Below, piece after piece: positions 5,623 to 54,664 of a stretch of 64,000 bases of DNA (its first letter is position 1; each line of letters opens with the position of its first letter). Source of the stretch: Alphaproteobacteria bacterium (lineage in GTDB: Bacteria; Pseudomonadota; Alphaproteobacteria; Micavibrionales; UBA2020); NCBI GenBank assembly GCA_041287865.1, contig JBGGMV010000037.1:4614-68613 (forward strand), written 5' to 3'. The notes under the pieces are model-generated. The model was given only the letters and a program-made list of their open reading frames with translations, was not told the DNA's origin and made no database searches. A program made the position numbers and the translations under genes.

Positions 5623-6936
5623 TTAGTAACGATAGTGTCCGGGCTTGAAGGGGCCTTCCTCGTCAATGTCGAGGTACTCGGCCTGCTTTTCCGTAAGCTT
5701 GGTCAGCTTCACGCCGAGTTTCTCGAGGTGCAGGCGCGCGACTTTCTCGTCGAGGTGCTTGGGCAGCACATAGACCTTGTTCTCGTACTTGGCATGATTG
5801 TTCCAGAGCTCGATCTGCGCCAAAACTTGGTTCGTAAAGGACGCCGACATCACAAAGCTCGGGTGGCCGGTGGCGCAGCCGAGGTTCACAAGGCGGCCCT
5901 TGGCCAGCACGATCAGGCGCTTGCCGTCGGGGAAGATGACTTCATCAACCTGCGGCTTCACTTCTTCCAATTTGTAGTTGGAAAGGGCTGCGATCTGGAT
6001 CTCGCTGTCAAAGTGGCCGATGTTGCAGACGATCGCGCGGTCTTTCATCTGGCGCATGTGGTCGAGCGTGATGACGTCGACGTTGCCGGTGGCGGTGACG
6101 AAGATATCGCCCAGCGGCGCGGCGTCTTCCATCGTCACGACCTGATAGCCTTCCATCGCGGCCTGCAGCGCGCAGATGGGGTCGACTTCCGTGACCATGA
6201 CGCGAGCACCTTGTGAGCGGAGCGAAGCGGCGGAGCCTTTGCCCACGTCGCCGTAACCGCAGACGACGCCGACCTTGCCGGCCAGCATCACGTCGGTTGC
6301 GCGCTTGATGCCGTCGACGAGGCTTTCGCGGCAGCCGTAGAGGTTGTCGAATTTCGACTTGGTGACGCTGTCGTTGACGTTGATGGCGGGAACCTTCAGC
6401 GTGCCTTTTTTCTCCATGTCATAGAGGCGATGCACGCCCGTGGTGGTTTCTTCCGACAGGCCCTTCACGTTCTTCATCATCTCGGGATATTTTTCGTGCA
6501 TGATTTTCGTGACGTCGCCGCCATCGTCGAGGATCATGTTGGGAACCCAGCCGTTGGGGCCGCGTAAGGTCTGTTCGATGCACCACCAGAATTCCTCCTC
6601 GTTCATGCCTTTCCAGGCGAAGACGGGAACGCCAGTTGCGGCGATAGCGGCGGCGGCCTGATCCTGCGTCGAGAAGATGTTGCAGGACGACCAGCGCACT
6701 TCGGCGCCGAGCGACGTCAGGGTTTCGATCAGCACAGCCGTTTGAATGGTCATGTGCAGGCAGCCGACGATGCGGGCGCCTTTCAGCGGGCTTTTGCCCT
6801 TGAATTCCGTGCGCAGCGCCATCAGGCCCGGCATTTCAGTTTCGGCGATGGCGATTTCCTTGCGGCCCCAGTCGGCGAGGCTCATGTCTTTTACCTTGAA
6901 GTCGCCCGAAGTTGTTTTTGCTTGTGCCACGGCCAT
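5623..6936 (-). CDS. ahcY: Adenosylhomocysteinase
   Basis: 437-aa ORF. NAD-binding [12 protein letters not shown], the [10 protein letters not shown] motif and the C-terminal KPGHYRY are typical of S-adenosyl-L-homocysteine hydrolase. Confidence 0.95.
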
Positions 6937-7007: not shown

Positions 7008-8759
7008 TCAGGGCCTGAATTGGGCCACAATCGCGATTATTTTGGCAGGTTCGTATTGGCTCATGACATGCCGCGCATGTTCTTCGGCCTGTTCTAGCGA
7101 TATGGCGCGGATTCGCTCCTTCACGCGCGGGAGAGAGGCGTAACCGATGGAGAATTCACGGATGCCAAGGCCCAGCAGCAGGGCCGTATATTTCGGGTCC
7201 GCCCCCATTTCACCGCAGATGCTGATGGGAATGCCCATGCGCTTCGCAGCCTCAATGGCGAACTCCATCAGGCGCAGCACGGCGGGGTTCAAAGGGTTAT
7301 AGAGCGCGGCCACCTGATCATTCCCGCGGTCGATAGCGACTGTGTACTGCGTCAGGTCGTTCGTGCCGAGCGCGAAGAAATCGGAGACAGCCGCAAGGCC
7401 ATCGGCCGAGAGCGCCGCCGCCGGTATCTCGATCATCGTGCCGAGCGGCGGGGTTTTGGCCGGAATGGCGGCTTTTTCGGTTTGCAATTCCTTGTAGCAG
7501 GTCTTGAGGATTTTCCGCGCCTGCTCCACCTCCTCCGCTGTCGTCACCATTGGCAGCAGGATTTTGACAGGGCCCAGCGCAGCCGCGCGTAAAATAGCGC
7601 GGAACTGGGTTTTCAGCAGATGCGGTTCTTTTAACTGCAACCGTATGGCGCGCAACCCCAGCGCGGGGTTCGCCGCATCGGCCAGATATTCGCCGACCGA
7701 TTTCGCCAGCTTATCGCCGCCGATGTCGAGCGTGCGGAAGGTGACGGGCTGCCCCTGCATCTGGCGCACGATATCGGCCATGGCCTCGAACTGTTCGTCC
7801 TCCGACGGCAGGGTCGAGCGGTTCATGAATAAAAATTCGGTGCGGTAAAGGCCGATGCCTTCCGCGCCCGAAGCTTTAATGGCTTCGGATTCACGCGGAA
7901 TTTCGAGGTTGGCGCGCAAGATCACCCGCGTGCCATCCTTTGTCACGGCGGCTTCGGCCGACAGCGCCTCCAGCGCCTCGCGGTCCTTCAGCAGCTGTGC
8001 GCGTTTGGCAGCGTAAATTTCCAGCGTGGCAGGCGTGGGATTGAGGATAAGCTTGCCTTCGATACCGTCGACAATCGCGGTATGGCCGTGCACGCCGCTT
8101 TCCAGCATCGCGGCATCGACCCCCAGCACGGCGGCAAGGCCAAGGCTGCGCGCCATCACCGCCGTATGGCCGGCAGCGCCGCCATGAACGGTCGCAAGGC
8201 CCGCAAAGCGACGCGGGTCGAGCAGCGCGGTATCAGCCGGCGAAATTTCACGCGCCAGCACGATACCTCCCGGCGGCACGGAATCAAGGGATATATAAGG
8301 AAGATCAAGCAGCGCCCGCATTAAACGATTACCCACCGCCTCGACATCGTCGATGCGCGTAGCGATATAATTGTCCTTCAGCGCGCGGAATTGTTCGGCC
8401 AGATCGCGCATGACCATGTCGAGCGCCCATTCGGCGTTGATACCCTCGTCCGCGATTTTCTTGAGCGCGCCGCGCACAAGGCGTGAGCCGGAGATCATGG
8501 CAAGGTGCGCATCCAGCAGCAGCGACACTTCCTCGACCGCCGTGTCGGGCAGGGAGAGCGATTTTTCCTTGAGGTCGATCAATTCCTGCCGCACGCGGGC
8601 GACGGCGGCCTCGAACCGTTTTTGCTCGGCGGGCGCGTCGGAAGGCTCTATCTTGCGCTGCGGAGCCTTGGGCTTTTCAAGCTGGACAAGGTAGGCGGGG
8701 CCCGACGCGATGCCATGCGAAACGCCGATGCCGGTGAAGATAACCTCGCCCTGCATCAT
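7008..8759 (-). CDS. ptsI: Phosphoenolpyruvate-protein phosphotransferase (PTS enzyme I, no GAF domain)
   Basis: 583-aa ORF. Phosphohistidine region GGAAGHTAVMARSLG and PEP-utilising C-terminal barrel (FFALGTNDLTQY). At this length there is no room for the N-terminal GAF domain of PtsP. Confidence 0.9.
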   Translation of the reverse strand: MMQGEVIFTGIGVSHGIASGPAYLVQLEKPKAPQRKIEPSDAPAEQKRFEAAVARVRQELIDLKEKSLSLPDTAVEEVSLLLDAHLAMISGSRLVRGALKKIADEGINAEWALDMVMRDLAEQFRALKDNYIATRIDDVEAVGNRLMRALLDLPYISLDSVPPGGIVLAREISPADTALLDPRRFAGLATVHGGAAGHTAVMARSLGLAAVLGVDAAMLESGVHGHTAIVDGIEGKLILNPTPATLEIYAAKRAQLLKDREALEALSAEAAVTKDGTRVILRANLEIPRESEAIKASGAEGIGLYRTEFLFMNRSTLPSEDEQFEAMADIVRQMQGQPVTFRTLDIGGDKLAKSVGEYLADAANPALGLRAIRLQLKEPHLLKTQFRAILRAAALGPVKILLPMVTTAEEVEQARKILKTCYKELQTEKAAIPAKTPPLGTMIEIPAAALSADGLAAVSDFFALGTNDLTQYTVAIDRGNDQVAALYNPLNPAVLRLMEFAIEAAKRMGIPISICGEMGADPKYTALLLGLGIREFSIGYASLPRVKERIRAISLEQAEEHARHVMSQYEPAKIIAIVAQFRP

Positions 8760-9432: not shown

Positions 9433-10367
9433 GCTATTTTCCTTTGCTTTCTTCTTGAAATGGAATGGCCATGCGCTGTCTGCAAGCGCGCAGCGGGATC
9501 TTTTTCGAGGTCGCGATGGCGCACCGCCGTGCTGAATCCGCGCTTGCTAACCCAGCGATGCAATTCTTCCGCCACGCACACGGAGCGATGCCGCCCGCCG
9601 GTGCAGCCGACGGCGACAGTGAGATAATTTTTGCCTTCGTTGATATAACGCGGCAATAGCGGCGCGAGGAGTTTCGTTACGCCGGTATAGAAACCTTTAT
9701 AGGCCTTGTCCGATCGCACTTTTTTGGCAACGGCGGGATCAAGCCCCGAGAGCGGGCGCAGGTGTGCATCCCAATGCGGGTTATGCAGGAAACGCACGTC
9801 GAAAACCAGATCGGCCTCACGCGGGATGCCATTCTTGAATCCGAAGGAGGTCACGAAAACAAAGAGCCCTTTTTCCTGCTCCAGCTGGAAGTAACTCGCC
9901 ATGATGCGGCGAAGTTCAAACGCCTTGAGGTCGGAGGTGTCGATCACATGCCCTGCGGCGCGACGCAAGGGTGTCATCAATTGCCGCTCGCGGATCACGC
10001 CGTCCGATACGGGACGGTCGACCGCCAATGGATGCACACGGCGCGTTTCGGTATAGCGCTGCTGTAAAATACTGTCCTGACAGTTGATAAAGACCAGCTC
10101 GGCCTGCAGCGATTTGTCTTTTTTCAGCTTATCCATCTGCTTCAGCAGCGCGGCGGGCGTGAAATCCCATGTGCGGCTGTCGATGCCGATGGCGATAGGG
10201 GTTCCCTGCCCCTGTTTTTGCCTGAGCAGCGCATCTACCAGCCCGAGCGGCAGGTTGTCGATCGCCTTGTAGCCAAGGTCTTCGAGTGATTTGAGAGCAG
10301 TCGACAGCCCCGCACCGGACAGGCCCGTCACCACCAATACGCGGCGCTTTGCGGGCTTGCGGGCCAT
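9429..10367 (-). CDS. rapZ: RNase adapter protein RapZ (YhbJ family)
   Basis: 312 aa. Walker A VTGLSGAGLSTALK and the C-terminal GCTGGRHRSV motif. Confidence 0.9.
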   Translation of the reverse strand: MARKPAKRRVLVVTGLSGAGLSTALKSLEDLGYKAIDNLPLGLVDALLRQKQGQGTPIAIGIDSRTWDFTPAALLKQMDKLKKDKSLQAELVFINCQDSILQQRYTETRRVHPLAVDRPVSDGVIRERQLMTPLRRAAGHVIDTSDLKAFELRRIMASYFQLEQEKGLFVFVTSFGFKNGIPREADLVFDVRFLHNPHWDAHLRPLSGLDPAVAKKVRSDKAYKGFYTGVTKLLAPLLPRYINEGKNYLTVAVGCTGGRHRSVCVAEELHRWVSKRGFSTAVRHRDLEKDPAARLQTAHGHSISRRKQRKIA

Positions 10368-10849
10368 TACTTCACCACCAGCCCGGGTTTGTGCACGACA
10401 TCCATCGCTTTATAAATCTTCAGCGCGGTGGAAACATCAAAGGCATGGAGTTTCAGGAGCGGGATATCGACGCCCAGGATATTGACGAATTGCGGGTCGG
10501 GGAGGCGCGGGACTTCTTCGTGCTTCACAAGGTCGACCACAAGGCGCAGACGGGCGGGGTCGGCCACGGGATAGCGCAGCAGGCCGATGCCGCGCACTTC
10601 GATCAAGCCGCTGATGGCCTCGACCGCGCCGGCATAAATTTTATCCTGACGTTTCTCGAAACTGACCTGATCGTCGCAGATCAGCTCGCTGCCGTTCTCG
10701 ATCAGGCGGAAGGCAAGGTCGGACTTGCCGGAGCCGGAGCGGCCGCGCAGGAAGACGACGGAGGGCGAAAAATTGACGCTCTTCAGCAGCACGGCCGAGC
10801 CATGCAGCACCGTAGTCTTGGGAGGCGGTGGCGTCTTTGGGATGCCCAC
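10367..10849 (-). CDS. hprK: HPr kinase/phosphorylase, C-terminal-domain-only form
   Basis: 160 aa with P-loop LRGRSGSGKSDLAFRLI. Short HprK lacking the N-terminal domain is the usual alphaproteobacterial form. Confidence 0.8.
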   Translation of the reverse strand: MGIPKTPPPPKTTVLHGSAVLLKSVNFSPSVVFLRGRSGSGKSDLAFRLIENGSELICDDQVSFEKRQDKIYAGAVEAISGLIEVRGIGLLRYPVADPARLRLVVDLVKHEEVPRLPDPQFVNILGVDIPLLKLHAFDVSTALKIYKAMDVVHKPGLVVK

Positions 10850-10871: not shown

Positions 10872-12218
10872 TCAGCCGTTCAGTTTCAGGGCATGGCCGA
10901 CCAGGTAAAGAGAGCCCGTAATGATTATACGCTGCGGCGTCGTGAATTGTAAGGCAAGCGACCGGATCGCGCTTTCCAGATTATCGGCAGGCTGCGCATT
11001 GGCAAAGCCCATAGCCTTCAGGGAATCACATAATTCCTGCGGCGGCACCAGCGGCGCGTCGATGCGGGCATCCACGGCCTGAATGCTTTTGGGAATGCCG
11101 ACAAGGCGTTCGTAGAAACCGTCGGTATCTTTCTTTTTCTTGAAGCCGGTGATGATATGCAGCGGCTTTTCATCGCCCCAGGCCTTGGCCTGCGCCGCCA
11201 AAACTTCCGCGCCAGAATCGTTATGCGCGCCATCGGCCCAAAGCTCCCAACCCTTCGGCAGCAGATCGGCCAGATGGCCGCGGGTGAGTTGCTGGAAGCG
11301 GCCCGGCCATGTAACGGTTTCCATGGCGCGGGTGAGCGTGTCCTGCTTCAGCAGGCTGGCGAAGGGGCTGTTCTCCAGACCCGCAATCGCCGTGCCTGCG
11401 TTGATGACCTGATGCCCGCCCAGCAGTTTCGGCAGGGGTAGCGTGAATTTGTTTTTGCCCTGATAGGTGAAGGCATTGCCCCGCACCTCCGTGCTCCAGT
11501 CGCGGCCCGCAACGAACGTCGGCGCGCCCATTTCAGCGGCGCGGCGCAGGAAAACCTCGTTCACCTCGGGCGACTGGGGGGCCACGATGGCGGGGCATCC
11601 GCGCTTGATAATACCGGCCTTCTCGCCCGCAATGGCCGGCAGCGTATCGCCCAGCAGGCGGGTATGGTCATAGGAAATACGCGTCAGCAGCGCGATGCTT
11701 TTTTCGATCACGTTAGTGGCGTCATAATTGCCGCCAAGGCCGGTTTCGAGAAGTACGGCATCGGCGGGCGTGCGCGCGTAAATCAGGAACGCGAGCGCGG
11801 TGAAAAATTCGAAGAAGGAGATTTCATCGTCACCCGCCGCGCGCTTCACTTCGCCGATCAGTTCCAGCAGGTGATCGGGCTCGATCTGCTTGCCCGCCAC
11901 GACAATCCGTTCCTCGAAACGGACGAGGTGCGGGGAGATGAATTTATGGACGGTTAATCCGCCAGCCTCGAACATCGATTGCAGGAAGGCCAGCGTCGAG
12001 CCCTTGCCGTTGGTGCCCGCAACGTGAAAAACGGGCGGCATTTTGTGCTGCGGGTTGCCAAGTTTTGCCAGCATCTGCTTCGGCCTATCAAGGCCGTTCG
12101 GCAGCATCGGCGGGCTTTTCAGGCGGATTTCGTTGACGGCAAGCTCGACGGCGGGGACGGGCGAAAAGGTCCACTCGCGTTGCGGCTGCGGGGCGGCGGC
12201 CTCTTTTTTGTCAAGCAT
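10872..12218 (-). CDS. folC: Bifunctional folylpolyglutamate synthase / dihydrofolate synthase
   Basis: 448 aa. Mur-ligase P-loop HVAGTNGKGST and conserved accD-folC synteny. Confidence 0.9.
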   Translation of the reverse strand: MLDKKEAAAPQPQREWTFSPVPAVELAVNEIRLKSPPMLPNGLDRPKQMLAKLGNPQHKMPPVFHVAGTNGKGSTLAFLQSMFEAGGLTVHKFISPHLVRFEERIVVAGKQIEPDHLLELIGEVKRAAGDDEISFFEFFTALAFLIYARTPADAVLLETGLGGNYDATNVIEKSIALLTRISYDHTRLLGDTLPAIAGEKAGIIKRGCPAIVAPQSPEVNEVFLRRAAEMGAPTFVAGRDWSTEVRGNAFTYQGKNKFTLPLPKLLGGHQVINAGTAIAGLENSPFASLLKQDTLTRAMETVTWPGRFQQLTRGHLADLLPKGWELWADGAHNDSGAEVLAAQAKAWGDEKPLHIITGFKKKKDTDGFYERLVGIPKSIQAVDARIDAPLVPPQELCDSLKAMGFANAQPADNLESAIRSLALQFTTPQRIIITGSLYLVGHALKLNG

Positions 12219-13943: not shown

Positions 13944-14405
13944 TCACTTTATTTCAAAGATGGCATCGACCTCGACCGCGGCGCCCAGCGGCAGCGCGGA
14001 AACGCCGACGGCGGCGCGCGCATGTTTTCCGGCATCGCCGAAAACCTCGACGATCAGGTCGGATGCGCCGTTGACCACTTTCGGATGGTCGGTGAATTCG
14101 GGCGTGGAGGCGACGAAGCCGCCGAGGCGCAGGCAGCGCGAAATTTTATCGAGGTCGCCCAGCGCGGCCTTCGCCTGCGCGACGATGTTGATAGCGCAAA
14201 CGCGCGCGGCTTTCTGGCCGTCTTCGAGCGAGACATCTTTTCCAAGATGGCCCTTGGTCATCTGACCGCCCGCACCGGGAAGCTGGCCCGAGATATAAAG
14301 AGTCTTGCCGGAAATGGTGAAGGGCACATAGTTCGCAACCGGCGGCGCGAGATCGGGGATGGTGATACCAAGCGCCGCAAGGCGCGCGTCGATTTTCGAG
14401 GTCAT
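13944..14405 (-). CDS. RidA/YjgF-family protein
   Basis: 153 aa with RidA-like length and C-terminal block ARAAVGVSALPLGAAVEVDAIFEI. Confidence 0.8.
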   Translation of the reverse strand: MTSKIDARLAALGITIPDLAPPVANYVPFTISGKTLYISGQLPGAGGQMTKGHLGKDVSLEDGQKAARVCAINIVAQAKAALGDLDKISRCLRLGGFVASTPEFTDHPKVVNGASDLIVEVFGDAGKHARAAVGVSALPLGAAVEVDAIFEIK

Positions 14406-14438
14406 TAAAAAGCTCCTTTAGCAGCAAACTAAAGGAGC
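14406..14438 (-). terminator. Rho-independent terminator after the 64-aa ORF
   Basis: 10-bp stem GCTCCTTTAG (14412-14421) / CTAAAGGAGC (14429-14438), followed on the minus strand by a T-run. Confidence 0.6.
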
Positions 14439-14465
14439 CTTATCCGTCGTGCAATTGCAATTCCG

Positions 14466-14660
14466 TTATTTGTTCACCAGCATTTCGAAGTCGAGCTCGA
14501 CGCAGGCGAACTCCTTGTACTCGGCATTAATGCCGGCAGGCTCGGGCGTGCCTTTCGCGCGGGGCGCGGATTTCGCAAACTGATCACGGACATCAAGCGC
14601 ATCGGCCCAGGCGTCCGCTTCAGGGAAATCAACAGCAGGGCTCATCATTAAGGACTCCAT
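14466..14660 (-). CDS. Small acidic hypothetical protein (64 aa)
   Basis: ORF with its own terminator and an AT-rich upstream region. No family recognised. Confidence 0.4.
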   Translation of the reverse strand: MESLMMSPAVDFPEADAWADALDVRDQFAKSAPRAKGTPEPAGINAEYKEFACVELDFEMLVNK

Positions 14661-14922
14661 CCTTGTTCAGGCCTTGATTCTGGCGATAGCCTTAGTATTG
14701 CATCTATATGTTAATTATATGCTAATATGGTTAATAGACTCCTAGCGCTTGAAAACATCATTATACATTTGATTTATAATGATTTTTATAGCCTCAAACC
14801 CCCTCTGAAATTACTTTACATAATTATTGCAATCCCACCCCTTTTGTATAATAATGTCCCAATGCCCAAAACAGCCGATTTAGCGCCTCTTTAGAAGGAC
14901 ATGGCCGGATGTGTGAAGGCAA
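14661..14922. promoter_or_regulatory. AT-rich divergent intergenic region upstream of the ankyrin operon
   Basis: About 260 nt that are visibly much more AT-rich than the flanks (for example ttaattatatgctaatatggttaatag and tttataatgatttttata). It separates divergent genes. No specific sites were assigned. Confidence 0.4.
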
Positions 14923-15750
14923 ATGGAGTGTGTGATGCCCGTCATGGATTTTTTCACCAAGGCCGCGACAAAAATGGCCCAGCCTGACCTCGACCGCCAC
15001 CTTGTGCTGGCGGCGCAGGAGGGCGATATCGAAAAAATGAAAACCCTGATCAAGCAAGGCGCCAGCATCGACGGCCGCGACGCCAGCGAAGACACTCCCC
15101 TGATCGGCGCAGCGCGCGAAGACAAGCTGGAGGCCGTGAAATTCCTGCTGAAGCAAGGCGCCGACCCGACCCTGCAAAACGGCATCGGCAAGACCGCGCT
15201 GCTGATCGCGCTTTGCGACCATGTGGCCGAAGAAATCTCGCTCACGCTGGTCAAGACCGGAAAAGCGCTCGATGCAGTCGACATGCACGGCAACCCCGCC
15301 GCCTTTTACGCCGCGCAATACGGCCACCCAAAAGTGCTGGAGGCCCTGGCCGAAGGCGGCGCCGATATGGCGAAGCCCGGCAAGTACGGCACCACGCCGC
15401 TGATGCGTGCTATCGAAGTCGGGCAGATTGATGCCGGCCGCACGCTGATCGGCGAGAAGCTGGTGCCTGCGGTTGGCATTGATATGCAGGATAATAACGG
15501 CTCGACCGTGCTGGCGCTGGCGGTCGAAAACAAGCGCGATATCTTCGTCATGTCCTTTATCGCGCTGGGCGCGAACGCGGACCTGAAAGACAAGCAGGGC
15601 CGCACGCCCTATTCCATCGCCGAGGAAACGGGACAGACCGCTATCTGCCGCGCCCTCGAAGAACAGCGCGCAAAAAAATACGCCGTGGCAGCATCGGCAA
15701 CGGTCAAGACCATGAAAACGATTTCGCTGCGGACGGGGGCCACGCCATGA
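14923..15750 (+). CDS. Ankyrin-repeat protein 1 (275 aa)
   Basis: Repeated ANK consensus (GASIDGRDASEDTPLIGAAREDKLEAVKFLLKQGADP, GNPAAFYAAQYGHPKVLEALAEGGAD, and others). An AAGG RBS precedes the ATG. Confidence 0.85.
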   Translation: MECVMPVMDFFTKAATKMAQPDLDRHLVLAAQEGDIEKMKTLIKQGASIDGRDASEDTPLIGAAREDKLEAVKFLLKQGADPTLQNGIGKTALLIALCDHVAEEISLTLVKTGKALDAVDMHGNPAAFYAAQYGHPKVLEALAEGGADMAKPGKYGTTPLMRAIEVGQIDAGRTLIGEKLVPAVGIDMQDNNGSTVLALAVENKRDIFVMSFIALGANADLKDKQGRTPYSIAEETGQTAICRALEEQRAKKYAVAASATVKTMKTISLRTGATP

Positions 15751-45513: not shown

Positions 45514-46203
45514 TTACGCCGTAGCCTTACGCTCGAAAGCGCCGCCGTGGTCGCGCGACCATTCGGCGGGGGCGGCGAGGAATTTTTCGACCTCGACGAA
45601 GACTTCCTCCGGATAGCGCTTGCGTGCCTTGGCTTCGGCCAGCACGTCTTTCCATGTGGCCAGCGCATGCAGTTTCAGACCCGCATCGCCGAAGATTTTC
45701 GGGCTTTCGGTATAGATGCCGTAGAAGAAAACCGAGAATACATCGGTGACGACAGCGCCGCCGTCACGAAGCGCATTGGCAAAGGCGACTTTCGATGCGC
45801 CGTCGGTCGCGAGGTCTTCGACCAGCAGCACGCGGGCGCCTTCGGGCATATGGCCTTCGATCTGCGCGCCACGGCCGAAGCCTTTCGGCTTCTTGCGCAC
45901 GTAGAGCATCGGTTTATCCAGTTCTTCGGACATCCAGGCTGCGTAGGAGATACCAGCCGTTTCACCGCCCGCGATATAATCGACCTTCGAAATATCGCAG
46001 CTTGATGCCAGCAACTCGCAGCCCATGTTGGTGATTTCACGGCGGGCGTTTAAAAACGAGATCACCTTGCGGCAGTCGATATAGACCGGGCTCGCCCAGC
46101 CGGAGGTGAAGATATAGGGTTTATCCGAATTGAAATGGACGGCTTCGATATCCAGCAGCAGTTGCGCGGTGCGTCTTGCCGCTTTTTGCGTATCGAAGGC
46201 CAT
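45514..46203 (-). CDS. pyrE: Orotate phosphoribosyltransferase
   Basis: 229 aa with PRPP-binding motif VLLVEDLATDGASK. Confidence 0.9.
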   Translation of the reverse strand: MAFDTQKAARRTAQLLLDIEAVHFNSDKPYIFTSGWASPVYIDCRKVISFLNARREITNMGCELLASSCDISKVDYIAGGETAGISYAAWMSEELDKPMLYVRKKPKGFGRGAQIEGHMPEGARVLLVEDLATDGASKVAFANALRDGGAVVTDVFSVFFYGIYTESPKIFGDAGLKLHALATWKDVLAEAKARKRYPEEVFVEVEKFLAAPAEWSRDHGGAFERKATA

Positions 46204-46204
46204 C

Positions 46205-46519
46205 TTACCAGCTCCCCGGCCTGCGCGGCGGCTTGAAGATCCAGAAATTGCGGAGCAGGAACATGACGGTCAGGAAAGTGATTTCGATGCCGAGACCGGC
46301 GATGGCGATCAGCGGCAGGCGCCATTTTTCGTAGGCGGCGGGGCCGAAGATGACCTTGACGTTGAAGGCAGCCGCTGCCGAGACCATCAGGCAGGCCGCC
46401 ATCACCGACCAGTTGAAGATCGACAGCGCGCGCTTGTTCGCCCATTCGGGCTGGAAGGAAAAGAAGGCCCAGGCCACAAAGACGCCAAGACAGATGAGCA
46501 GCCCTACAAGCGGACCCAT
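46205..46519 (-). CDS. Small membrane protein (104 aa, 3 TM helices)
   Basis: Hydrophobic ORF packed tightly upstream of pyrE. No family recognised. Confidence 0.5.
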   Translation of the reverse strand: MGPLVGLLICLGVFVAWAFFSFQPEWANKRALSIFNWSVMAACLMVSAAAAFNVKVIFGPAAYEKWRLPLIAIAGLGIEITFLTVMFLLRNFWIFKPPRRPGSW

Positions 46520-46573
46520 GGATTCCCCTTAGATGGTTAAAAACGTCGCTATTTTATAACTTTTTTCCGGCCG

Positions 46574-46966
46574 TCAGGCAACTACCTGGCTTTCGAGGAA
46601 GCGCTGGGCGTGCAGCCCGTCCAGCACGCGCTCGAACTTGCGGCGCGCCTCGGGCGACAGCGGCAGGAATTCGGCCGCCATGCCGCGCTGCGCGGCCCTG
46701 ACAACGCGGCCTACCTGCCGGATGCTGACGATTTCATGCGCCAGCTTGAATTTCAATGTGAGCTGTATTTTGTCGCCGACCGACATGCCGGCATAGGGGC
46801 TGGTTTCGAACGACACGCCGCCCAGGCTCCAGTCCTTGACCCCGTAGGCCTTGCTGCCCACCTCGACCTCGGCCTTCACGCCATCGTGGCGGATATGCTT
46901 GCGGCGCGTGCCGATATCGTCGTTGCCGGTGCGCAGGCCGATGAGCTCTAGGACGCGATTAATCAT
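46574..46966 (-). CDS. PilZ-domain protein
   Basis: 130 aa with the c-di-GMP binding motifs RRKHIR and DWSLGG. Confidence 0.75.
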   Translation of the reverse strand: MINRVLELIGLRTGNDDIGTRRKHIRHDGVKAEVEVGSKAYGVKDWSLGGVSFETSPYAGMSVGDKIQLTLKFKLAHEIVSIRQVGRVVRAAQRGMAAEFLPLSPEARRKFERVLDGLHAQRFLESQVVA

Positions 46967-47113
46967 GTGTTTTTCCCCCGATGCTGAAACTTATCCCCAA
47001 GCCGATTCTATCTGTTTTGGGGGTAAAAGTTCAAGTTTTTCAACATTCTGGCCCCTGTTTTGCACGTAAAATCAGGGTAATATCAGGTGCTTATGACAAA
47101 ATAGGCGTCTTGC

Positions 47114-47141
47114 TTGACTCAACAAGCCCCCAAAGTATATA
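47114..47141 (+). promoter_or_regulatory. Candidate sigma-70 promoter of rpmI-rplT
   Basis: TTGACT (47114-47119), a 16-nt spacer, then TATATA (47136-47141), about 90 nt upstream of the rpmI ATG. Confidence 0.45.
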
Positions 47142-47230
47142 AATTCTCTCCATAACAGCGGCTAAACCCGCACCCGTCCTCTGGCTCGAATTGGCTGCCT
47201 CGTTGGCGGGATTTTTGAAAGGAAAACAAA

Positions 47231-50887: not shown

Positions 50888-51596
50888 TTCGAACAAACGG
50901 CTGGACGGGCGCGTCGCGCTTGTGACCGGCGCGTCGCGCGGCATCGGCGCGGCTGTGGCCAAGGCTTTCGCAGCCGAAGGCGCGCATGTGATTTTGCTGG
51001 CCCGCACGCAGGGCGCGCTGGAAGAAACCGACGACGCGATAAAAGCCCTCGGCGGCAAGGCGACGCTGCTGCCCTTCGACCTCAATGAGAGCAAGAAAAT
51101 CGCCGCCATCGGCCCGACCATCGCCGATCGTTTCAAGCGCCTTGATATCCTTGTCGGCAATGCCGCGATGCTGGGCAACCTCAGCCCCGTCGCCATGTCT
51201 GACCCGAAAGTTTACGAAGAAACATTCCGCGTGAACTTCCTTGCCAATTACCACCTGATCCGCGCGCTCGATCCGCTGCTGCGCGGCTCCGACGCCGGAC
51301 GCGCCATCTTCGTCACCTCCGGCGCCGCGCATATGGGCAGCCCCTTCTGGAGCGCCTATGCAGCCTCCAAGGCTGCGCTCGAGGAAATGGTGGCGTCTTA
51401 CGCCGCCGAAACGGCCTATAGCCCGCTGAAGGTCAACATCCTTGATCCCGGCGTGGTGCGCACCGAAATGCGCGCCGAGGCCTTCCCGGCCGAAGACGCG
51501 AAAACGCTGCCGCTGCCCGAGACCATCACGGGCCGCTTTATCGAACTCGCCCTGCCCGCCTGTGAAAAAAACGGAAAAGTGGTCAAGGCCGCGTGA
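50880..51596 (+). CDS. SDR-family oxidoreductase
   Basis: 238 aa with cofactor motif VALVTGASRGIGAAVA and catalytic YAASKAALE. Confidence 0.85.
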   Translation: MSNSNKRLDGRVALVTGASRGIGAAVAKAFAAEGAHVILLARTQGALEETDDAIKALGGKATLLPFDLNESKKIAAIGPTIADRFKRLDILVGNAAMLGNLSPVAMSDPKVYEETFRVNFLANYHLIRALDPLLRGSDAGRAIFVTSGAAHMGSPFWSAYAASKAALEEMVASYAAETAYSPLKVNILDPGVVRTEMRAEAFPAEDAKTLPLPETITGRFIELALPACEKNGKVVKAA

Positions 51597-52543
51597 GTAT
51601 CGCCAACCCCCACCTGCACGGAATATCGGATGGCTCGCCGCCCACCAGCCTGAAACGCTGGGCGGCTGTGGCTTCGCTGTCAGTCGCGACAGTGCTGGTG
51701 GCGGTCAAGTTCATGGCCTTCCTGATGACGGATTCGGTGAGCTTGCTGTCGTCGCTGATGGATTCGTCGTTTGACGCCTTCGCCTCGCTGATCACCATGC
51801 TCTCGGTCATCCATGCCGCGACGCCCGCCGACGAAGAACACCGTTTCGGCCATGGCAAGCTGGAGGCGTTATCCGCGCTGGGGCAAGCCGTGTTTATCTT
51901 CGGCTCCGCGATCTTCCTGCTGTTCGAATGCGCGCGGCGTTTCGTAACACCCATCCAGATCCACGAACCCACGATTGCGATTGCCGTGATGGTGCTGTCG
52001 ATCGTGCTGACGGCTTTCCTGCTGGTCTTCCAGATTTACGTGATCAAGAAAACAAAATCCGTCGCTATCTCCGCCGATTACCTGCATTACAAGGGCGACT
52101 TGCTGGCGAACCTCAGCGTCTTCGCGGCCCTCGCCCTCAGCTACTACACGAAAATGAAATACGTCGACCCGGCTTTCGCCAGCATCATCGCGCTGACGCT
52201 GCTCTGGGGCGCTTTCTCGATCACGCGGCAGTCCTTCGACATTTTAATGGACAAGGAGATCAGTACCGCCGACCGCGACAAGATCATGGCGCTGGTGACC
52301 GCGCACAAGGACGTGGTGGCCGTGCACGACCTGCGCACCCGCAACACCGGCGACAGGATTTTTATAGAATTCCACATGGAAGTCGACGGCACGCTCTCGC
52401 TCAACCGCGCCCATGCGATTACCGAGGATATCGAGAAAACGCTTTTCGACGCCTTCCCCACCTCGGAAGTCCTGATCCACCAGGAACCCGCCGGCATTGA
52501 CGATCACCGGCTGGATAATATTATCCCCATAAAAAATACCTGA
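51593..52543 (+). CDS. Cation diffusion facilitator (CDF) family transporter
   Basis: 316 aa with six TM helices. The SLLSSLMDSSFDAFAS and HYKGDLLAN metal-site motifs are followed by a cytoplasmic domain. Confidence 0.85.
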   Translation: MSIANPHLHGISDGSPPTSLKRWAAVASLSVATVLVAVKFMAFLMTDSVSLLSSLMDSSFDAFASLITMLSVIHAATPADEEHRFGHGKLEALSALGQAVFIFGSAIFLLFECARRFVTPIQIHEPTIAIAVMVLSIVLTAFLLVFQIYVIKKTKSVAISADYLHYKGDLLANLSVFAALALSYYTKMKYVDPAFASIIALTLLWGAFSITRQSFDILMDKEISTADRDKIMALVTAHKDVVAVHDLRTRNTGDRIFIEFHMEVDGTLSLNRAHAITEDIEKTLFDAFPTSEVLIHQEPAGIDDHRLDNIIPIKNT

Positions 52544-52554
52544 CCGCCTTTACA

Positions 52555-52610
52555 CCTCCCCCTCGGGGGAGGGAGGGGCCCGCGCCCTTGCGCGGGAGGG
52601 TGAGGGGAAC
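52555..52610. repeat. Left inverted repeat (double-hairpin REP-like element)
   Basis: CCTCCCCCTCGGGGGAGG and CCCGCGCCCTTGCGCGGG hairpins. The reverse complement matches 53181-53235 at about 46 of 55 positions in my hand alignment. Confidence 0.8.
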
Positions 52611-52621
52611 TCCGTGACGTA

Positions 52622-53137
52622 TTACTTTTTGACCCACGATGCTATAGGGATCGCGCCTTTTTGATTTGCCAAAATATTCAGCGTATCGAAAGCTCGCGAG
52701 AGTGCGATGTCTTCACAAGCGCCACAATCTGACAGCCACAAAAGCCATTTTTGTGTAGCTTCACATTCCTTCGGGCTTAACTGAGGCCAACGTTTTGCAA
52801 AGAAATCATCCCAAGAGTTAGGGGCATTGCCACGGTCAAGGCAACTTACAAGTGAGCTATTAACTATCAAATTAGGCTGATTCTCCCTAATCCCGGCACA
52901 ATAAATGCCCGGCAAAAAATATCGAAAAGCTTCGGGGGAGAAACCAAATATTGCGTCGTAATATTGCTGTAATTCAGCACACGTTATTTGCTGCCATGCT
53001 TTACCAGTAAACTCTTGAGCATCTTCGTATAAATCAGAATCCGGACTTTCTGCCTTGATGACCGTTTCGGGCATGGCTCGATCTTTGAAAGCCTCCGCGA
53101 TAAAAGTCAGCAATGCTTCAATATCTTCTTGCATCAT
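52622..53137 (-). CDS. Hypothetical cytoplasmic protein in an AT-rich cassette (about 171 aa)
   Basis: The start MMQEDIEALL of ORF 52622-53242 was chosen because the upstream 35 codons only translate the flanking repeat. The codon and GC composition are visibly foreign. It is small, Trp/Cys-containing and has no TM helix. Confidence 0.55.
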   Translation of the reverse strand: MMQEDIEALLTFIAEAFKDRAMPETVIKAESPDSDLYEDAQEFTGKAWQQITCAELQQYYDAIFGFSPEAFRYFLPGIYCAGIRENQPNLIVNSSLVSCLDRGNAPNSWDDFFAKRWPQLSPKECEATQKWLLWLSDCGACEDIALSRAFDTLNILANQKGAIPIASWVKK

Positions 53138-53180
53138 CAATTCATCAAATTTGAACAGGACAAGGTTCGCGCCTTCCAAA

Positions 53181-53235
53181 GTTCCCCTCACCTTCCCATG
53201 CTTCGCATGGGCCCCTTCCTCCCCCGAGGGGGAGG
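53181..53235. repeat. Right inverted repeat (double-hairpin REP-like element)
   Basis: GTTCCCCTCACC..CCCATGCTTCGCATGGG..CCTCCCCCGAGGGGGAGG. Base changes relative to the left copy are compensatory in the central stem. Confidence 0.8.
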
Positions 53236-53245
53236 CGGGCAAGGA

Positions 53246-54664
53246 TCAATCCGTATAAGGGTTCTTCGCGGCCTTCAGCACCATGCGAATCGGCACGGCG
53301 GGCAGGCCGAAATCGCGGCGCAGGCCGTTCACGATGAAGCGTTCATGCGTGTCGGGGTACTGGTCGGGGCGCGACAGCCACAAGGCAAAGGTCGGCGGGC
53401 GGGCCTTCAGCTGCGTAATGTAACGCAGGCGGTTCTGGCGGCCGTTGACCAGCGGCGCGGGGTTCTGCGATTCCATGGCGCGGAGCCAGCGGTTCAGCTT
53501 GTTGGTCGGCACGCGGCAGTTCCAGAGCTTGTAGGCGTCGAGCACGCCCTGCAAAACGCTTTCGACGCGCTGGCCCTTCAGCGCCGAAATCGTCACCAGC
53601 GGCACGCCTTTGACCTGCGGCAGGGATTTATCCAGCTGGTATTGAAGTTCCTCCAGCTTCGCGGCGCGGTCTTTCACGGCGTCCCATTTATTGACGGCGA
53701 TCACCAGCGCGCGGCCTTCCCGCGTGACCAGATCGCCGATCATCAGGTCTTGTTTTTCGAATTCGTTCTCGGCGTCGATCACCAGCACGACGACCTGCGC
53801 AAGACGGATGGCGCGAAGGCTGTCTTCCACCGCCATGCGCTCGATCTCGTTCACGATTTTCGATTTACGGCGGAGACCTGCGGTATCGACAAGGCGAATC
53901 TTGCGGCCGCCGAAGGCCCAGTCCACATGCACAGCGTCGCGCGTCAGGCCCGCTTCGGGCCCTGTCATCGAGCGTTCTTCGCCCACCATCGCGTTCAGCA
54001 GCGTCGATTTGCCGACGTTGGGGCGGCCGACGATGGCGATCTTGATCGGGTTGCTGAGGTCTTCTGCTTCTTCTTCCTCGTCGCCGAAGCCTTTTTCGTC
54101 GCCTTCGTGGTATTTCTGGAAGTAAATCTCGAGGTCTTCTTCCTGTTCTTCGGTCAGCGGCGGGTTGGCGGCGTCGACATGCGGGCGCAGCAGGTCGTAA
54201 AGATCATTCATGCCCATGCCATGCTCGGCGGAAACGGGGATCGGCTCGCCAAGGCCCAGTTCATAGGCCTCCAGCAGTCCCTGCGCCGAGGCCTTGGTGT
54301 CGCATTTATTGACGACCAGCGCCGATTTCACCTTCTGCTTGCGCAGCCACAGGGCGAAGTGCCTGTCCATCGGCGTGATGCCGGTGCGGCCATCGACGAC
54401 CAGAATGGCCATATCGGCCTTTTCCAGCGCGCGTTCGGTCTGCTGGCGCATCCGCGCCTCGATCGAGGCGTCGAAATGTTCTTCCAGCCCAGCCGTGTCG
54501 ATGACGCGGAATTGCAGGCCCATCAGGTTGGCATCCGCCGCGCGCCAGTCGCGCGTCAGGCCGGGGCTGTCATGCACCAGCGCCAGTTTCTTGCCGACAA
54601 GGCGGTTGAACAGCGTCGACTTGCCGACGTTGGGGCGCCCGATGATTGCTAAGGTGAATGTCAT
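53246..54664 (-). CDS. der: Ribosome biogenesis GTPase Der (EngA)
   Basis: 472 aa with two GTPase domains (GRPNVGKSTLFN and GRPNVGKSTLLN) and a KH-like C-terminus. Confidence 0.95.
   Translation of the reverse strand: MTFTLAIIGRPNVGKSTLFNRLVGKKLALVHDSPGLTRDWRAADANLMGLQFRVIDTAGLEEHFDASIEARMRQQTERALEKADMAILVVDGRTGITPMDRHFALWLRKQKVKSALVVNKCDTKASAQGLLEAYELGLGEPIPVSAEHGMGMNDLYDLLRPHVDAANPPLTEEQEEDLEIYFQKYHEGDEKGFGDEEEEAEDLSNPIKIAIVGRPNVGKSTLLNAMVGEERSMTGPEAGLTRDAVHVDWAFGGRKIRLVDTAGLRRKSKIVNEIERMAVEDSLRAIRLAQVVVLVIDAENEFEKQDLMIGDLVTREGRALVIAVNKWDAVKDRAAKLEELQYQLDKSLPQVKGVPLVTISALKGQRVESVLQGVLDAYKLWNCRVPTNKLNRWLRAMESQNPAPLVNGRQNRLRYITQLKARPPTFALWLSRPDQYPDTHERFIVNGLRRDFGLPAVPIRMVLKAAKNPYTD

Follow-up and report, generated by a model that had tools for sequence, protein, structure and literature searches.

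A probable orphan immunity gene of the DUF6714 family in the centre of a REP-type palindromic doublet between fieF and der of an alphaproteobacterium

Between the convergent genes fieF, encoding a cation diffusion facilitator (CDF) transporter, and der in a 64-kb stretch of an alphaproteobacterial genome (hereafter the window, the one stretch of this genome that was analysed) lies an insertion, positions 52544-53245, which carries a single gene of the Pfam family DUF6714 bounded by two inverted double-hairpin repeats (the arms). The region is interpreted, with a probability of about 0.68, as an orphan immunity gene that was acquired horizontally and now sits in the centre of a palindromic doublet of the type known from repetitive extragenic palindromic (REP) sequences and bacterial interspersed mosaic elements (BIMEs). 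The two parts of this reading, the immunity gene and the REP doublet, are each held to be more probable than the whole, and the mechanism of capture much less so. Each component is of a known kind and only their combination is unusual.

The GC content of the insertion is 0.44 compared with 0.60 for the whole window, and when measured over 200 nt at a time it falls from ~0.60-0.67 to 0.43-0.475 across ~52600-53200. A single open reading frame (ORF) of 171 aa, counted from its ATG, fills this AT-rich stretch; an in-frame TTG at 53179, where the gene call starts, gives a 185-aa version. The ORF has a GC content of 0.44 and a GC content at third codon positions (GC3) of 0.40, GC3 being 0.80 for both der and the CDF gene. 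An initial annotation, made from the sequence alone, had described an AT-rich single-gene stretch of inserted DNA at this place and proposed to look at codon usage and at related genomes for an empty site; the foreign composition found here agrees with that description, as do the relatives.

When comparing the locus with those of the closest homologues from a search with the CDF protein, the gene order radA-cvpA-x-SDR-CDF / der-bamB-TPR-Ank was found to be kept in five relatives, with CDF and der convergent and a near-zero gap between them. The two genes are separated by 66 unrelated nt in L018 (CDF 91% identical to that of the window), by 3 nt in L019 (78%) and by 1 nt in L021 (75%), they overlap by 4 nt in L078 (75%), and in L022, named Micavibrio sp. 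(72%), a NUDIX gene lies between them. None of these five relatives has the arms, and the cargo is absent from L018, L019, L020, L021 and L078-L080. The short contig L024 reads der-arm-ORF-arm-CDF at the same site as the window. Judged by these loci, the fieF-der stop-to-stop segment was inserted specifically in the lineage to which the window and L024 belong. Distances among the window, L024 and L018 are roughly equal (der and CDF are 86-88% identical at the DNA level), the window and L024 being the closest pair by a narrow margin, so that one insertion in the common ancestor of these two would be the simplest history. No target-site duplication was found just outside the repeats, where the initial annotation had suggested looking for one, either in the window (outer flanks CCGCCTTTACA and CGGGCAAGGA) or in L024, and a miniature inverted-repeat transposable element (MITE) or composite transposon was rejected as in both cases inverted arms are present but no direct repeat lies outside them. 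A direct repeat GGATCGCGCCTT / GGTTCGCGCCTT (52648 and 53164) is regarded as chance. In a Micavibrio sp. metagenome-assembled genome (MAG), GCA_028283745, a NUDIX hydrolase gene on the plus strand and without arms occupies the CDF/der junction (L022 5954-6499 and L023 5237-5782), so this junction has taken insertions more than once.

The ORF is a member of Pfam PF20461 (DUF6714), with 28.6 bits at a gathering score of 27 (E 1.6e-6), and thereby has the family match that could not be made at first. Its 35 homologues are 42-82% identical, the close ones being already named DUF6714 in their source records, and a profile search gave 1274 clusters at E <= 1e-3 (~1270 clusters at 50% identity). NCBIfam, PADLOC and PHROGs returned zero matches for the ORF, which leaves defence, phage and anti-defence readings unsupported, the last of these having been offered initially as a guess. 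All 16 invariant residues of the family are present in the window ORF, and its ratio of nonsynonymous to synonymous substitution rates (dN/dS) is 0.078 in comparison with L024, der and CDF giving 0.058-0.078, so the gene has evidently been under purifying selection since the window and L024 separated and is maintained. An AlphaFold2 model (pLDDT 90.7, pTM 0.85) is all-alpha. In the first five homologue loci (L024, L006, L001, L003 and L025) the gene lies 9-16 GC points under its locus, and in many of the 52 metagenome homologue loci the gap is small or nil. Within the family, three proteins of 325-333 aa (P0156, P0158 and P0222) are tandem duplications of DUF6714 with two matched stretches, and in P0264 and P0275 (542-630 aa) DUF6714 forms the C-terminus of a far longer protein.

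The neighbourhood of the homologues points to a function in immunity, which had also been among the early guesses. P0003 (69% identical) starts 4 nt after the gene of a 1715-aa RHS-repeat protein, P0006 overlaps the end of an RHS protein, and P0005 lies after a 318-aa RHS-tip fragment and before another RHS fragment. The C-terminal ~85 residues of these three upstream Rhs proteins all match Pfam Ntox16 (PF15523), consistently but below the cut-off, with 19.6, 21.2 and 22.7 bits, and the domain is therefore named Ntox16-like. With a hidden Markov model (HMM) of the toxin tip built from the same three C-termini, the domain was found to end within ~15 nt of the DUF6714 homologue in 21/56 loci, in backgrounds of 40-67% GC. 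By this comparison DUF6714 is repeatedly encoded directly downstream of Rhs proteins with a C-terminal Ntox16-like domain, that is, on the same strand and directly 3' of a toxin-tip gene as expected of immunity proteins, and this linkage argues for a polymorphic-toxin immunity gene. The window ORF, as an orphan copy, is most likely an immunity gene against the Rhs toxin of a rival bacterium. In Burkholderia multivorans (L084; NZ_CP143551.1, 1857557-1870045) a homologue of 36% identity, at 5920-6492, is found in an array of small ORFs 2 kb 3' of an Rhs-like ORF; PLSDB gives only 3 features for the whole 2.4-Mb record, none of them in the homologue's stretch. The 2012 catalogue of polymorphic toxins describes Ntox16 as alpha-helical and RHS-linked and lists no immunity protein for it, the pairing with DUF6714 being absent there (PMC3482391).

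A search of the 64-kb window found neither an Rhs gene nor a toxin tip. From the der-side arm to the ATG there are 42 nt (53137-53178), which translate to LWKARTLSCSNLMN* in the frame of the toxin (asterisk, stop codon), with the TGA overlapping the immunity ATG, and the clear part of this remnant is its last 21 nt, 53137-53157, CSNLMN*. The toxins of 17 loci end in ...W..VG.C..LM.* directly before the immunity start, and a loose version of this motif arises by chance in 155/300000 random sequences of the cargo's composition. In L024 this 42-nt segment is missing. By its match to these toxin ends the window can be seen to keep the last ~14 codons of a toxin gene, ending on the immunity start codon, and such a stub together with the lack of a toxin gene would make the cargo a piece of a toxin-immunity locus with its break inside the toxin gene. 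In Vibrio cholerae, orphan immunity genes are reported to stand next to comparable effector-gene stubs (PMC5361080).

The arms, 52555-52611 (+) and 53180-53235 (-), agree in 47/57 aligned columns and form the best inverted repeat of the whole window; inverted double-hairpin repeats of ~55 nt, identical at about 46/55 positions, had been noticed before, and each arm does fold as two hairpins. In the CDF-side arm hairpin 1 (CCTCCCC/GGGGAGG) is followed by the linker GAGGGG, by hairpin 2 (CCCGCGC/GCGCGGG) and by the purine-rich tail GGGAGGGTGAGGGGAAC. The der-side arm has the linker AAGGGG, a second hairpin CCCATGC/GCATGGG and the tail GGGAAGGTGAGGGGAAC, which stops 4 nt short of the in-frame TTG (53179) and, in L024, 6 nt short of the ATG. 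Taken singly, the arms have weak folding-energy z-scores (-0.9 to -1.7), so the structure rests on covariation and not on folding energy: among 8 copies from 5 loci 104/104 pair cells are standard, 13 pairs being 100% paired, 4 with double changes. The der-side arm is identical at 58/58 positions in the window and L024, the flanking genes being 87-88% identical with a proportion of synonymous differences (pS) of 0.37-0.61, and from this comparison the arms are conserved far beyond the neutral expectation. Both are sense-oriented, 10-11 nt after the stop codon of the neighbouring gene. An intrinsic-terminator scan gave no terminator-like site at either arm, and with a purine-rich tail instead of a T-run after the hairpins the arms are not classical terminators. 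An integron gene cassette was rejected, there being two inverted arms rather than one attC and fieF and der as neighbours, though no search for an integrase was made in the window, and so was a transposase of the REP-associated tyrosine transposase (RAYT) kind between the arms, since the protein has no Y1_Tnp Pfam match and not a single histidine.

Further copies of the arm were searched for with exact-match scans of genomes and metagenomes and with R1, a covariance model built from eight arm copies. Among 185,579 species genomes scanned with a 21-mer, only one MAG, labelled uncultured Micavibrio sp., contained the full element, and the remaining matches (Prevotellaceae, Streptomyces and others) have the outer hairpin alone in common; a 27-mer of the arm gave 0 matches in the metagenome scan. 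The MAG CAZNRN01 holds at least 3 doublets, and all R1 occurrences in the "Micavibrio" MAG are inverted tail-to-tail doublets whose arms stand 12-31 nt apart, situated between phage tail genes (L011), between co-directional genes (L015) or between convergent genes (L016). A 310-aa ORF of L015 was considered as a CDF orthologue and dismissed, as tblastn found no window protein in those loci. The L011 doublet (1729-1878) is empty and stands between the tail-completion gp17 and tail-tube genes, that is, in a prophage or gene-transfer-agent-like operon. A BLAST search of 72,556 plasmids and chromids revealed the arm in Azospirillum only, at 61 places on 27 replicons with 81-91% identity, the records placing Azospirillum and the window organism in different orders. 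Tail-to-tail doublets occur there at L081 1413-1562 and, between convergent genes, at L082 1402-1567, and four more, all intergenic, at 7477-7608, 10873-11027, 14925-15086 and 18819-18978 of L083 (A. lipoferum 4B AZO_p4, 1-50000), a census of the first 50 kb of a 645-kb replicon. The copy number is about four doublets per 50 kb in Azospirillum, and for the window's genome two arms in its 64 kb. All copies examined are intergenic.

Two types of arm can be told apart. The Z-like arm has the linker AAGGGG, the hairpin CCCATGC..GCATGGG and the tail GGGAAGG(G)TGAGGGG (pattern AAGGGG..CCCATGC..GGGAAGGTG); the Y-like arm has the linker GAGGG(G), a hairpin starting CCCGCG/CCCGCC and the tail GGGAGGGTGAGGGG (pattern GAGGGG..CCCGCG..GGGAGGGTG). 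A Y-like arm is paired with a Z-like one in the window, L015, L081, L082 and three of the L083 doublets, and in the window the Y-like arm (CDF side) and the Z-like arm (der side) have the usual relative orientation and stand 558 nt apart instead of 12-31 nt. In sequence the window repeats are accordingly recognisable as the Y-like and Z-like arms of a tail-to-tail doublet family of REP/BIME type: they are extragenic imperfect palindromes with stable stem-loops and come as two inverted arm types. What had been taken for the cassette's own ends are arm types of a dispersed doublet, and of the initial label "REP/MITE-like" the first half holds and the second does not, there being no target-site duplication, no second site and no arms at any of >56 homologue loci. 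The inner-stem changes, first thought to be compensatory and private to this pair, are the standing Y/Z difference (GCGC vs ATGC), which the Azospirillum doublets share and to which two other G/A differences are linked; covariation of the hairpins is nevertheless seen across the family. In L024 the inner hairpin, and only this part, of the Y arm is converted to the Z form. Around other DUF6714 genes (7 + 52 loci) R1 gave no strong match, only weak ones of 12-18 bits, and a pair near one homologue, L036, belongs to an unrelated palindrome family, a large repeat at 5760-5910 (..CCTGTCATTCCGGGCCGAGCG.. / ..CGCCGGGGATGACA..) just 5' of the DUF6714 gene in a 66% GC organism. In L018, the closest cassette-free relative, two shorter sequences related to the arm, with a single hairpin each, stand head to head at 10241-10287 (-) and 10355-10402 (+) (CCTCTCCC..GGGAGAGG + GCTAGGGTGAGGGTAC); they flank a 67-nt AT-rich spacer 3' of an ankyrin-repeat gene and match R1 weakly (16-18 bits).

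BIMEs are reportedly inverted pairs of REPs, of Y and Z types in E. coli, and REPINs are said to be mobilised by RAYTs (the names of Gilson et al. and of Bertels and Rainey being attached to this work). Like these, the present elements are extragenic imperfect palindromes with two inverted arm types and a short spacer, found at gene ends and inside operons, with many copies per genome (Azospirillum) and a highly conserved sequence. They differ in that the arms are ~57 nt, with two hairpins and a purine-rich tail each, that the family spans genera of different orders, that the spacer is here a 570-nt gene and that no RAYT is linked to the arm family. RAYT genes flanked by inverted REPs resemble the window in having a ~170-codon gene bracketed by two inverted REP arms, but the window protein has no Y1 transposase Pfam match and, lacking histidine, cannot have an HUH motif. 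A literature search for RAYT and Azospirillum returned nothing relevant. According to the annotation table, L083 carries at 45979-47215 a helix-turn-helix regulator gene followed by a "reverse transcriptase family protein" gene, which may be a retron-like or other defence-type reverse transcriptase.

A second likeness is to whalefall-1 (Rfam RF01762), described by its authors as two hairpins with a tail that is rich in purines and resembles a Shine-Dalgarno sequence, a CUUG loop being frequent (Weinberg et al. 2010; PMC2864571). The arms likewise have two hairpins and then a purine-rich tail (AGGGUGAGG...) resembling a Shine-Dalgarno sequence, with a CUUG-type loop on hairpin 2. In full-length alignments the window arms score 22.4 (CDF-side) and 14.9 bits and L011, L024 and L016 25.8, 21.2 and 20.2 bits. 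None of them reaches the gathering score of 37, and the arms are therefore named whalefall-1-like. The published motif is filed as a small RNA (sRNA). In its seeds (wf2_Contig168, wf2_Contig5173 and others; PMC2864571 supplementary alignment, file 53) an inverted second copy, hairpin-hairpin-AGGGTGAGGAC on the other strand, stands ~50 nt upstream, so the seeds are head-to-head doublets and look REP-type rather than like a stand-alone sRNA, whereas the doublets found here are tail to tail.

With orphan immunity genes of Rhs, type VI secretion (T6SS) and contact-dependent inhibition systems, as reported in two studies (PMC5361080 for Vibrio cholerae arrays and PMC10539506 for Serratia Rhs), the window gene shares the small AT-rich form without a toxin, the toxin 3' stub and the purifying selection, but it stands alone between housekeeping genes and inside a REP doublet, not in an Rhs, T6SS or immunity-island array. 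Its protein would bind and neutralise an Ntox16-like toxin injected by competitors or prey by Rhs/T6SS-type delivery, which would amount to immunity without the weapon. Transcription of the gene would come from der by read-through, and its Shine-Dalgarno sequence would be the purine-rich tail of the der-side arm. As to its arrival, a random toxin-immunity fragment, consisting of a toxin tip and the immunity gene, may have been caught in the middle of the palindromic doublet, for instance when a break at the tip of a hairpin or cruciform was repaired, or the doublet may have arrived already loaded. The near-invariance of the arms could stem from sequence-specific recognition or from conversion against other copies of the family.

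Instead of having been captured, the gene could have travelled with the arms as a non-autonomous REPIN-like unit, mobilised in trans by a RAYT, or by another single-strand transposase of this sort, and inserted whole between fieF and der. The arms and the gene are either jointly present (window, L024) or jointly absent (five relatives), and the site lacks a target-site duplication, which HUH/Y1 transposition is not known to leave. The arms are also far better conserved than neutral DNA and 85-90% identical to copies in another genus, Azospirillum, and two empty doublets of one MAG have the spacer as well as the arms in common, so that the doublet behaves as a repeated unit. This course is nonetheless considered unlikely: the loaded doublet occurs at one chromosomal site in two related lineages with a divergence that fits vertical descent, the other homologue loci (7 + 52) have no arms, 9/9 other doublets examined are empty, the cargo starts in a truncated toxin gene and so resembles an arbitrary break, not a defined cassette end, and no transposase was seen, without a systematic search for one. 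It is likewise rather unlikely that the Y/Z double-hairpin doublet is a non-autonomous mobile element able to carry a passenger, the window being a REPIN-like vehicle loaded with an immunity gene. REP elements accumulate at gene ends, and an insertion of the gene alone, followed by a separate arrival of each arm as a 3'-end element of der or of fieF, would explain why both arms are sense-oriented just past a stop, as in the convergent pairs of L016 and L082. In L011, L015 and L081, however, the doublets lie between co-directional genes with one arm antisense to both, all other occurrences are compact Y-like plus Z-like pairs of which the window has one of each in the same relative orientation, and the gene-free relatives carry no arm after either fieF or der; independent arrival is decidedly unlikely.

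The least probable of the alternatives is that the ORF has nothing to do with immunity and is a decaying hitch-hiker or an unrelated cytoplasmic protein, linked to toxins only because both are housed in variable islands. No member of DUF6714 has been tested and the literature searched yielded no mention of the family, no relative in PDB could be found by sequence or fold, and in most homologue loci the HMM finds no toxin. Against it stand the dN/dS value, the intact frame and the 16/16 invariant residues, as well as the start that overlaps or abuts the toxin stop in many independent loci of varied GC, which is the canonical toxin-immunity arrangement. Several observations weigh against an orphan immunity gene captured in a REP doublet, the reading preferred here. 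All three Ntox16 matches stay below the Pfam gathering score of 25, the HMM built from three sequences recognises no toxin in 35/56 homologue loci, and the motif of the toxin remnant was set after inspection of the data. The predicted structure has no PDB match (best Foldseek E 0.32; best profile E vs PDB sequences 0.44), so the fold lends no independent support. In the comparison of the window with L024 the synonymous divergence (dS) of the ORF, 1.28, is ~2x that of its neighbours (0.50-0.63), which could be due to weak codon bias or to alleles that are not strictly orthologous. The sub-motifs of the arms are found nowhere else in the 64-kb window (0/100 shuffles reach that count), so other copies in this genome cannot be shown, and two carrier lineages with five empty sites do not separate a doublet-first, a gene-first and a both-together order of events.

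The features of the region are collected in Table 1. The CDF gene was assigned by the Pfam domains Cation_efflux and ZT_dimer, precomputed for the identical protein P0036 and its homologues, and der by the GTPase and KH_dom-like domains read on the syntenic der genes of relatives. Besides the cassette, one other 400-nt stretch of the window falls below 0.50 GC, at 14401-15100 (core ~14660-14920, GC 0.43); this sole other strongly AT-rich stretch is apparently non-coding, with a 64-aa minus-strand ORF on one side and, on the other, an ankyrin-repeat-like gene starting at 14923. A milder dip (0.475-0.48) is found at 56600-56900, 3' of the bamB-like gene; judging by synteny with L018, it is probably the gap that separates the TPR_21 gene from the ankyrin gene.

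Table 1. Positions in the window of the insertion between fieF and der, its parts and the adjoining genes
Feature	Position	Strand	Remarks
fieF-like CDF transporter gene, left neighbour	51593..52543	+	stop 11 nt ahead of left arm
CDF-side REP-doublet arm, Y-like	52549..52616, core 52555-52611	+	R1 87.3 bits; fold; arm typing
AT-rich cargo between arm cores: putative immunity gene and toxin-gene remnant	52612..53179	-	GC 0.43-0.47
DUF6714-family gene, 171 aa, putative orphan immunity gene	52622..53137	-	Pfam PF20461
putative 3'-end remnant of the cognate toxin gene	53137..53178	-	reading in toxin frame given in text
der-side REP-doublet arm, Z-like	53175..53241, core 53180-53235	-	R1 89.0 bits
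der (engA) GTPase gene, right neighbour	53246..54664	-	stop 10 nt ahead of right arm

The new points are a link between DUF6714 and Ntox16-like toxins as partners, the whalefall-1 architecture recognised as the arm of a REP doublet across distant genera, and a gene in the middle of such a doublet. For DUF6714, with its ~1270 clusters, a testable function is proposed, that of an immunity partner of Ntox16-like Rhs toxins. The "sRNA" architecture of whalefall-1 appears to be that of the arm of a REP/BIME-type doublet family shared by Azospirillum and Micavibrio-like bacteria, and the Rfam entry may need to be re-read. With the gene exactly in the middle of the doublet and an empty site that can be dated, the locus offers a natural case for deciding between capture at palindromes and REP doublets that carry cargo. 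If the mobile-vehicle reading were true, single defence genes could be acquired and moved without integrases or insertion sequence elements in a relative of the predatory Micavibrio, and the near-identity of the arms in Micavibrio-like bacteria and Azospirillum would reflect horizontal spread of a REP system. Speculatively, that selection keeps a lone immunity gene in a lineage bearing the name of an obligate predator would fit a defence against the weapons of its prey.

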